NCBI RefSeq assembly: GCF_041248615.1
Contig: NZ_CP158426.1
Length of the DNA: 64,000 nt
From: Escherichia coli
Lineage (GTDB): Bacteria > Pseudomonadota > Gammaproteobacteria > Enterobacterales > Enterobacteriaceae
Strand: one strand, 5' to 3'
In this document: piece after piece, positions 62,822-62,837 of the stretch
Position numbering within the stretch: position 1 is the stretch's first letter
How the letters are laid out: each line of letters begins with the position of its first letter
The notes under the pieces: generated by a model
Database searches by the model: none
What the model saw: only the letters and a program-made list of their open reading frames with translations
What the model was told of the DNA's origin: nothing
Position numbers and translations under genes: made by a program

Positions 62822-62837
62822 TGGCATAAGACCTGCA
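62822..62837 (+). promoter_or_regulatory. sigma-54 (-24/-12) promoter element upstream of argT
   Basis: TGGCATAAGACCTGCA fits GG-N10-GC with TGGCA and TGCA elements, ~70 bp upstream of the argT ATG. Confidence 0.6.

Follow-up and report, generated by a model that had tools for sequence, protein, structure and literature searches.

The 16-nt element TGGCATAAGACCTGCA, which lies on the plus strand at 62822-62837 of the Escherichia coli chromosome stretch analyzed here (64 kb; hereafter the window), is very probably argTp, the sigma-54 (RpoN) promoter of argT and possibly also the source of read-through transcription of argT-hisJQMP, a promoter that is opened by NtrC and that blocks a sigma-70-like promoter. 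That the element is a sigma-54 promoter is correct and established, because there are published data on the identical sequence. Indeed, argTp is an already known member of the sigma-54/NtrC nitrogen-scavenging regulon of both E. coli and Salmonella, and the literature states outright that argT has an NtrC-activated promoter under sigma-54/NtrC control. The analysis adds nothing to the knowledge of gene regulation as such; what it illustrates is that a true sigma-54 promoter can be recognized from raw sequence.

The gene order of the window in this region is dedD-cvpA-purF-ubiX-argT-hisJQMP, and the element is found in the 265-bp intergenic spacer between ubiX and argT, directly upstream of argT and with the argT strand as the sense strand (Table 1). 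Read directly from the sequence, it can be parsed as TGGCAT-AAGAC-CTGCA. The earlier note had pointed to a GG and a GC spaced as in sigma-54 promoters about 70 bp upstream of argT, and this description proved accurate: 10 bases stand between GG (62823-24) and GC (62835-36), which is the canonical sigma-54 -24/-12 spacing, and 68 nt lie between the 3' end of the element and the argT ATG. The departures from the sigma-54 consensus are a T rather than a C as the sixth base and CTGCA in place of TTGCA. Two open reading frames that run over the element, 62649-62840 on the plus strand and 62730-62870 on the minus strand, were rejected, as both are short, unsupported, and contained within the intergenic regulatory spacer.

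Table 1. Features of the ubiX-argT-hisJ region, in window coordinates.
Feature	Position	Strand	Basis or remark
Palindrome TGCCCTGTTTCAGGGCA, followed by AATTTT	62650-62666		8 of 13 to the NtrC consensus in E. coli
Candidate sigma-70-like promoter	62782-62810	+	-35 TTAACA (62782-87), 17-nt spacer, TG (62802-03), -10 TACTGT (62805-10); hexamers assigned by eye
Sigma-54 promoter element ATGGCATAAGACCTGCA (17-mer)	62821-62837	+	Sequence, weight matrix, conservation, identity to K-12 ChIP-seq site
Predicted sigma-54 start	62848	+	19 nt past the motif center (62829), 58 nt before the ATG; rule of Bonocora (PMC4591121), Table 1 and footnote, mapped to the window
C/A-rich 5' untranslated tract CAAACACACAACACAATACACAACATAAAAAA	62850-62881	+	Likely target of the GcvB sRNA
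Shine-Dalgarno GAGGG	62895-62899	+	6 nt ahead of the ATG; sequence and conservation
argT CDS, lysine/arginine/ornithine-binding periplasmic protein, 260 aa	62906-63688	+	ORF list; RefSeq annotation of 100% identical DNA
Tandem NtrC-type sites, argT-hisJ spacer	63718-63763		63718-34 (9 of 13) and 63747-63, TGCACTATCGTGGTGCA (12 of 13)
Sigma-54-like element ATGGCACGATAAGTGTA upstream of hisJ	63844-63860	+	Weight-matrix rank 10, 12.6 bits; GT rather than GC at -12

Across the ubiX-argT spacer, the window and K-12 strain C600 share 100% identity, so that experiments carried out in K-12 apply directly. The promoter shows no difference from argTp of K-12, being one and the same locus seen in a different strain of E. 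coli, and argTr/argTp of Salmonella Typhimurium and E. coli K-12 have an identical 16-18 nt element, TGGCATAAGACCTGCATG, at the same position. In K-12, the 17-mer ATGGCATAAGACCTGCA is the sigma-54 ChIP-seq site OS22, assigned to argT with a fold-above-threshold of 12 and a predicted start 58 nt ahead of the gene (Bonocora 2015, PMC4591121); the supplement of that study tabulates cross-species scores for OS22, and the same paper gives the EcoCyc status of the E. coli argT promoter in 2015 as 'predicted' and not 'confirmed'. RpoN holoenzyme alone selects the ubiX-argT spacer in gSELEX (in vitro genomic selection), with an intensity of 61% (Shimada 2021, PMC8743547). In Salmonella LT2, the 18-mer TGGCATAAGACCTGCATG is bound by sigma-54 in ChIP-chip experiments, argT expression is 3.5-fold higher in the wild type than in an rpoN deletion when a constitutive activator protein is present, and argT is listed among four operons that had earlier been shown by experiment to be sigma-54 dependent (Samuels 2013, PMC3844500).

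Nitrogen-regulated expression of argT, which had also been proposed from the sequence together with the sigma-54 promoter itself, is likewise upheld by published work. Not only is the identical sequence bound by sigma-54 in K-12, in vitro, and in Salmonella, but argT is among the NtrC ChIP targets that are up-regulated in nitrogen starvation (Brown 2014, PMC4066584), and an argTp-lacZ fusion is up 2.4-fold in a mutant lacking glnK, the product of which acts as a brake on NtrC (Wang 2016, PMC4958250). Control of argT by ArgR was considered and dropped: the literature says that argT is not ArgR-regulated, and only half an ARG box can be made out, in a stretch that is not conserved.

The element is strikingly well conserved. 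We collected 80 orthologous argT loci from the Enterobacteriaceae, covering Escherichia, Citrobacter, Salmonella, Enterobacter, Klebsiella, Raoultella, Kosakonia, Pluralibacter, Franconibacter, and others, and the pattern TGGCA[CT]-N6-TGC[AT] was present in all 80, located 66-105 nt ahead of the ATG. When these were aligned with the window (81 sequences), TGGCA and TGC were 100% identical at fixed spacing, whereas mean identity was 0.88 for the bases that separate the two blocks and 0.70 for the spacer as a whole; a column shape of five plus three positions was wholly invariant at only one of 251 possible positions, which is 62822. Within the species, 5,424 of 5,426 complete E. coli genomes retain a 51-nt promoter core. 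One of the only two genomes without it is that of strain B27 (a housefly isolate, NZ_AP027424.1), a natural promoter-less variant that has neither ubiX nor the argT -24/-12 element: purF and argT are separated there by about 330 bp of different sequence (2169-2500 of locus L082, corresponding to approximately 62000-62835 of the window), and identity to the window returns at 62836.

Downstream of the element, the rule used for the K-12 sites leads us to infer a sigma-54 start at 62848, and the C/A-rich tract of the argT leader that follows, CAAACACACAACACAATACACAACATAAAAAA, is likely to be a target site for the GcvB sRNA. In an alignment of 16 genera, the GG of the Shine-Dalgarno sequence (62897-98) is invariant, and its A at 62896 and G at 62899 are each at least 90% conserved.

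Taken with the published work, these features are best explained by the following mechanism. Sigma-54 RNA polymerase would bind the -24 GG and the -12 GC and would remain parked in a closed complex whatever the growth conditions; upon nitrogen limitation, phosphorylated NtrC would open the complex by ATP hydrolysis. Transcription by the opened complex would begin near 62848 and yield an mRNA with a leader of ~58 nt, in which GcvB would target the C/A-rich tract. When nitrogen is plentiful, the holoenzyme parked on the element would block a weak sigma-70-like promoter, the start of which lies ~5 nt upstream of the motif, such that one element would both activate and repress.

The archetypal NtrC-activated promoter, glnAp2, resembles argTp in its -24 GG/-12 GC spacing, in forming a closed complex that needs NtrC-P, and in being induced by nitrogen limitation. 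At glnAp2, NtrC has a pair of strong sites, near -110 and -140. The E. coli argTp is unlike glnAp2 in this respect, as NtrC matches in its upstream spacer do not exceed 8 of 13, and the NtrC ChIP signals differ as well, being 5.4-fold at argT versus 71-fold at glnAp2 (PMC4066584). We scanned the region 62560-63910 with the NtrC consensus TGCACC-N4-TGGTGCA, scoring matches of 13, and the best match in the ubiX-argT spacer was at 8 of 13, which is background (there are 532 such 17-mer positions in the window). Because nothing upstream of argT rose above 8 of 13, an upstream enhancer could not be placed. The argT peak in the NtrC ChIP data is weak, 5.4-fold compared with 23.7-fold at 'hisJQMP' (PMC4066584); it had been missed by the peak caller and was added by eye. 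In NtrC in vitro selection, argT is absent from the targets. A search of the ubiX-argT spacer with the IHF consensus WATCAANNNNTTR and relaxed forms of it also gave no match between the palindrome and the promoter. On behalf of argT, NtrC might bind weak sites of non-consensus sequence within the conserved blocks upstream, or the palindrome at 62650; alternatively, it might act from solution, or by looping from tandem sites downstream of the gene.

The palindrome TGCCCTGTTTCAGGGCA coincides with a hairpin, GCCCTGTTTCAGGGC, that is followed by AATTTT (62650-62672), just past ubiX, and that probably terminates the cvpA-purF-ubiX operon. At the equivalent position, K. pneumoniae, an Enterobacter sp., and R. 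terrigena have an NtrC-like site matching at 11-12 of 13; more generally, some Klebsiella, Raoultella, and Pluralibacter loci carry such 11-12 of 13 sites in the part of the spacer close to ubiX. The NtrC-like palindrome of Klebsiella and Raoultella, TGCGCC-N4-TGGTGCA, sits where E. coli has TGCCCTGTTTCAGGGCA, ~170 bp upstream of the -24 element. The alignment of 16 genera also reveals near-invariant blocks within 62667-62795, namely CGATCAAATCCTC (62679-91), GCTGCG (62721-26, after which the next base varies), TGCTATCTT (62744-52), and GCAACnT....TTAACA (62770-87). These conserved blocks may be sites for further regulators, or weak NtrC or IHF sites.

The strongest NtrC-type sequence lies on the other side of argT. 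Tandem sites are present in the argT-hisJ spacer, ~0.9 kb downstream of the argT promoter, and one of them, TGCACTATCGTGGTGCA, is the only 12-of-13 NtrC site in the 64-kb window. All 80 loci have a good NtrC-type site in this spacer (9-13 of 13, and at least 10 in 79 of the 80), and when we mapped the strong 'hisJQMP' NtrC ChIP peak (23.7-fold, PMC4066584) onto the window, it fell at 63698-63778, over the tandem sites. This arrangement raises the alternative that argTp is a sigma-54 promoter without a working enhancer upstream, on which NtrC bound at 63718-63763 acts by looping back over ~0.9 kb; NtrC might instead use very weak sites or work from solution. We consider this unlikely. In its favor, beyond the position and conservation of the near-consensus site and the much larger ChIP signal over it than at argT, the sigma-54-like element upstream of hisJ has GT at -12 in all Escherichia loci, and no sigma-54 ChIP peak for hisJ appears in any table of Bonocora 2015 (PMC4591121). 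Citrobacter and Franconibacter carry the canonical form of the hisJ element, TGGCACGATAACTGCA (TGCA). If looping were correct, the tandem sites would have lost their own sigma-54 partner, since the hisJ -12 GC became GT and published ChIP data show no signal for sigma-54 at this place.

Several observations weigh against this alternative. The argTp-lacZ fusion, placed at the lac locus, still responds to the loss of GlnK (the limits of the fragment are not given). Relative to the start that the hisJ element ATGGCACGATAAGTGTA predicts, the tandem sites lie ~117 and ~146 nt upstream, which is the classic geometry for serving hisJ. In addition, the invariant blocks of the ubiX-argT spacer could hold activator sites that do not conform to the consensus. 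The specific version in which the Escherichia argT promoter lacks its own enhancer and depends on loops formed with the conserved tandem NtrC sites ~0.9 kb downstream is unlikely to the same degree or slightly more so; if true, it would represent a natural enterobacterial NtrC enhancer that works from downstream, across a whole gene.

The evidence that argTp also blocks a sigma-70-like promoter comes from Schaefer 2015 (PMC4551910), in which argT is a class II entry of Table S3: the promoter is sigma-70-like, and the sigma-54 motif occupies +6 to +22 relative to its start. Given this placement, sigma-70-like transcription would begin near 62816, ~5 nt ahead of the motif. In that study, argT expression in the presence of rpoN was 23% of the level without rpoN, and sigma-54 lowered the synthesis of a sigma-70-dependent short RNA on the argT promoter in vitro. 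A candidate for this promoter includes an extended -10, TGtTACTGT (62802-10); a generic scan for sigma-70 promoters and terminators called neither Schaefer's sigma-70-like promoter nor the hairpin downstream of ubiX, and for this reason the sigma-70 hexamers were assigned by eye. As the -35-like block is conserved across genera and the -10 is not conserved beyond Escherichia, the sigma-70-like promoter of argT may be specific to Escherichia, and the -35-like block may serve another factor. A comparable situation exists at glmY/glmZ (PMC3844500), where, as at argT (PMC4551910), sigma-54 and sigma-70 holoenzymes compete on overlapping DNA, and through such competition the loss of rpoN can raise expression. 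The two systems differ in that the two promoters of glmY/glmZ overlap fully, whereas at argT the sigma-54 motif is just past the sigma-70 start, at +6 to +22.

These data could also be taken to mean that the element is mainly a repressor binding site, at which the parked sigma-54 holoenzyme keeps argT expression low and from which little productive sigma-54 transcription arises in E. coli. The drop to 23% with rpoN and the reduced short-RNA synthesis in vitro fit this idea, as do the weak occupancy of argT by NtrC and the spacer's having no consensus NtrC site, yet nitrogen starvation and loss of glnK both raise argT expression, and in Salmonella, which has the same sequence, there is 3.5-fold rpoN-dependent activation with the constitutive activator protein. 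Moreover, the -24/-12 element is invariant across genera whereas the sigma-70 -10 is not, which points to selection on the sigma-54 element itself. We therefore regard a mainly repressive role as improbable, and note that repressor and activator roles are compatible rather than exclusive.

Considered by itself, the argT motif is statistically unremarkable, as the numbers of matches fit chance expectation. TGGCAY-N5-YTGCW has one exact match in the window, the argT element, versus 0.46 expected, and at least one match was found in 40 of 100 shuffled windows; with two mismatches to the strict sigma-54 consensus, there were 52 matches in the window versus 43 expected. Even so, the possibility that the element is a chance match with no promoter function is negligible and already refuted by its invariance in 80 genomes of many genera and by the published sigma-54 occupancy in two species and in vitro together with rpoN-dependent expression.

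Besides its conservation among orthologous loci and within E. coli, and its sense-oriented intergenic position just ahead of a gene, the weight-matrix rank of the element raises it above background. A weight matrix for sigma-54 sites, which we built from the 41 other intergenic ChIP-seq motifs in Table 1 of Bonocora 2015, leaving argT out, gave the argT 17-mer a score of 14.7 bits, or rank 3 among the 127,968 17-mers of the window, although it outscores only 29% of the sites from which the matrix was built. The top score in the window, 17.8 bits, belongs to CTGGCATACATTATGCA, at 11089-11105 on the minus strand within evgS, and this sequence is identical to the published K-12 intragenic sigma-54 ChIP-seq site IS29.

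When 59000-64000 was searched against Rfam at a permissive threshold, there was nothing near argT, and the only matches were sub-threshold ones to naRNA4/REP in the dedD-cvpA spacer. These naRNA4 matches, on both strands at 59649-59794, suggest that the spacer holds REP-type repeats. The dedD-cvpA spacer also has a weak RpoN peak, at 31-32%, in the in vitro selection of Shimada 2021 (PMC8743547).
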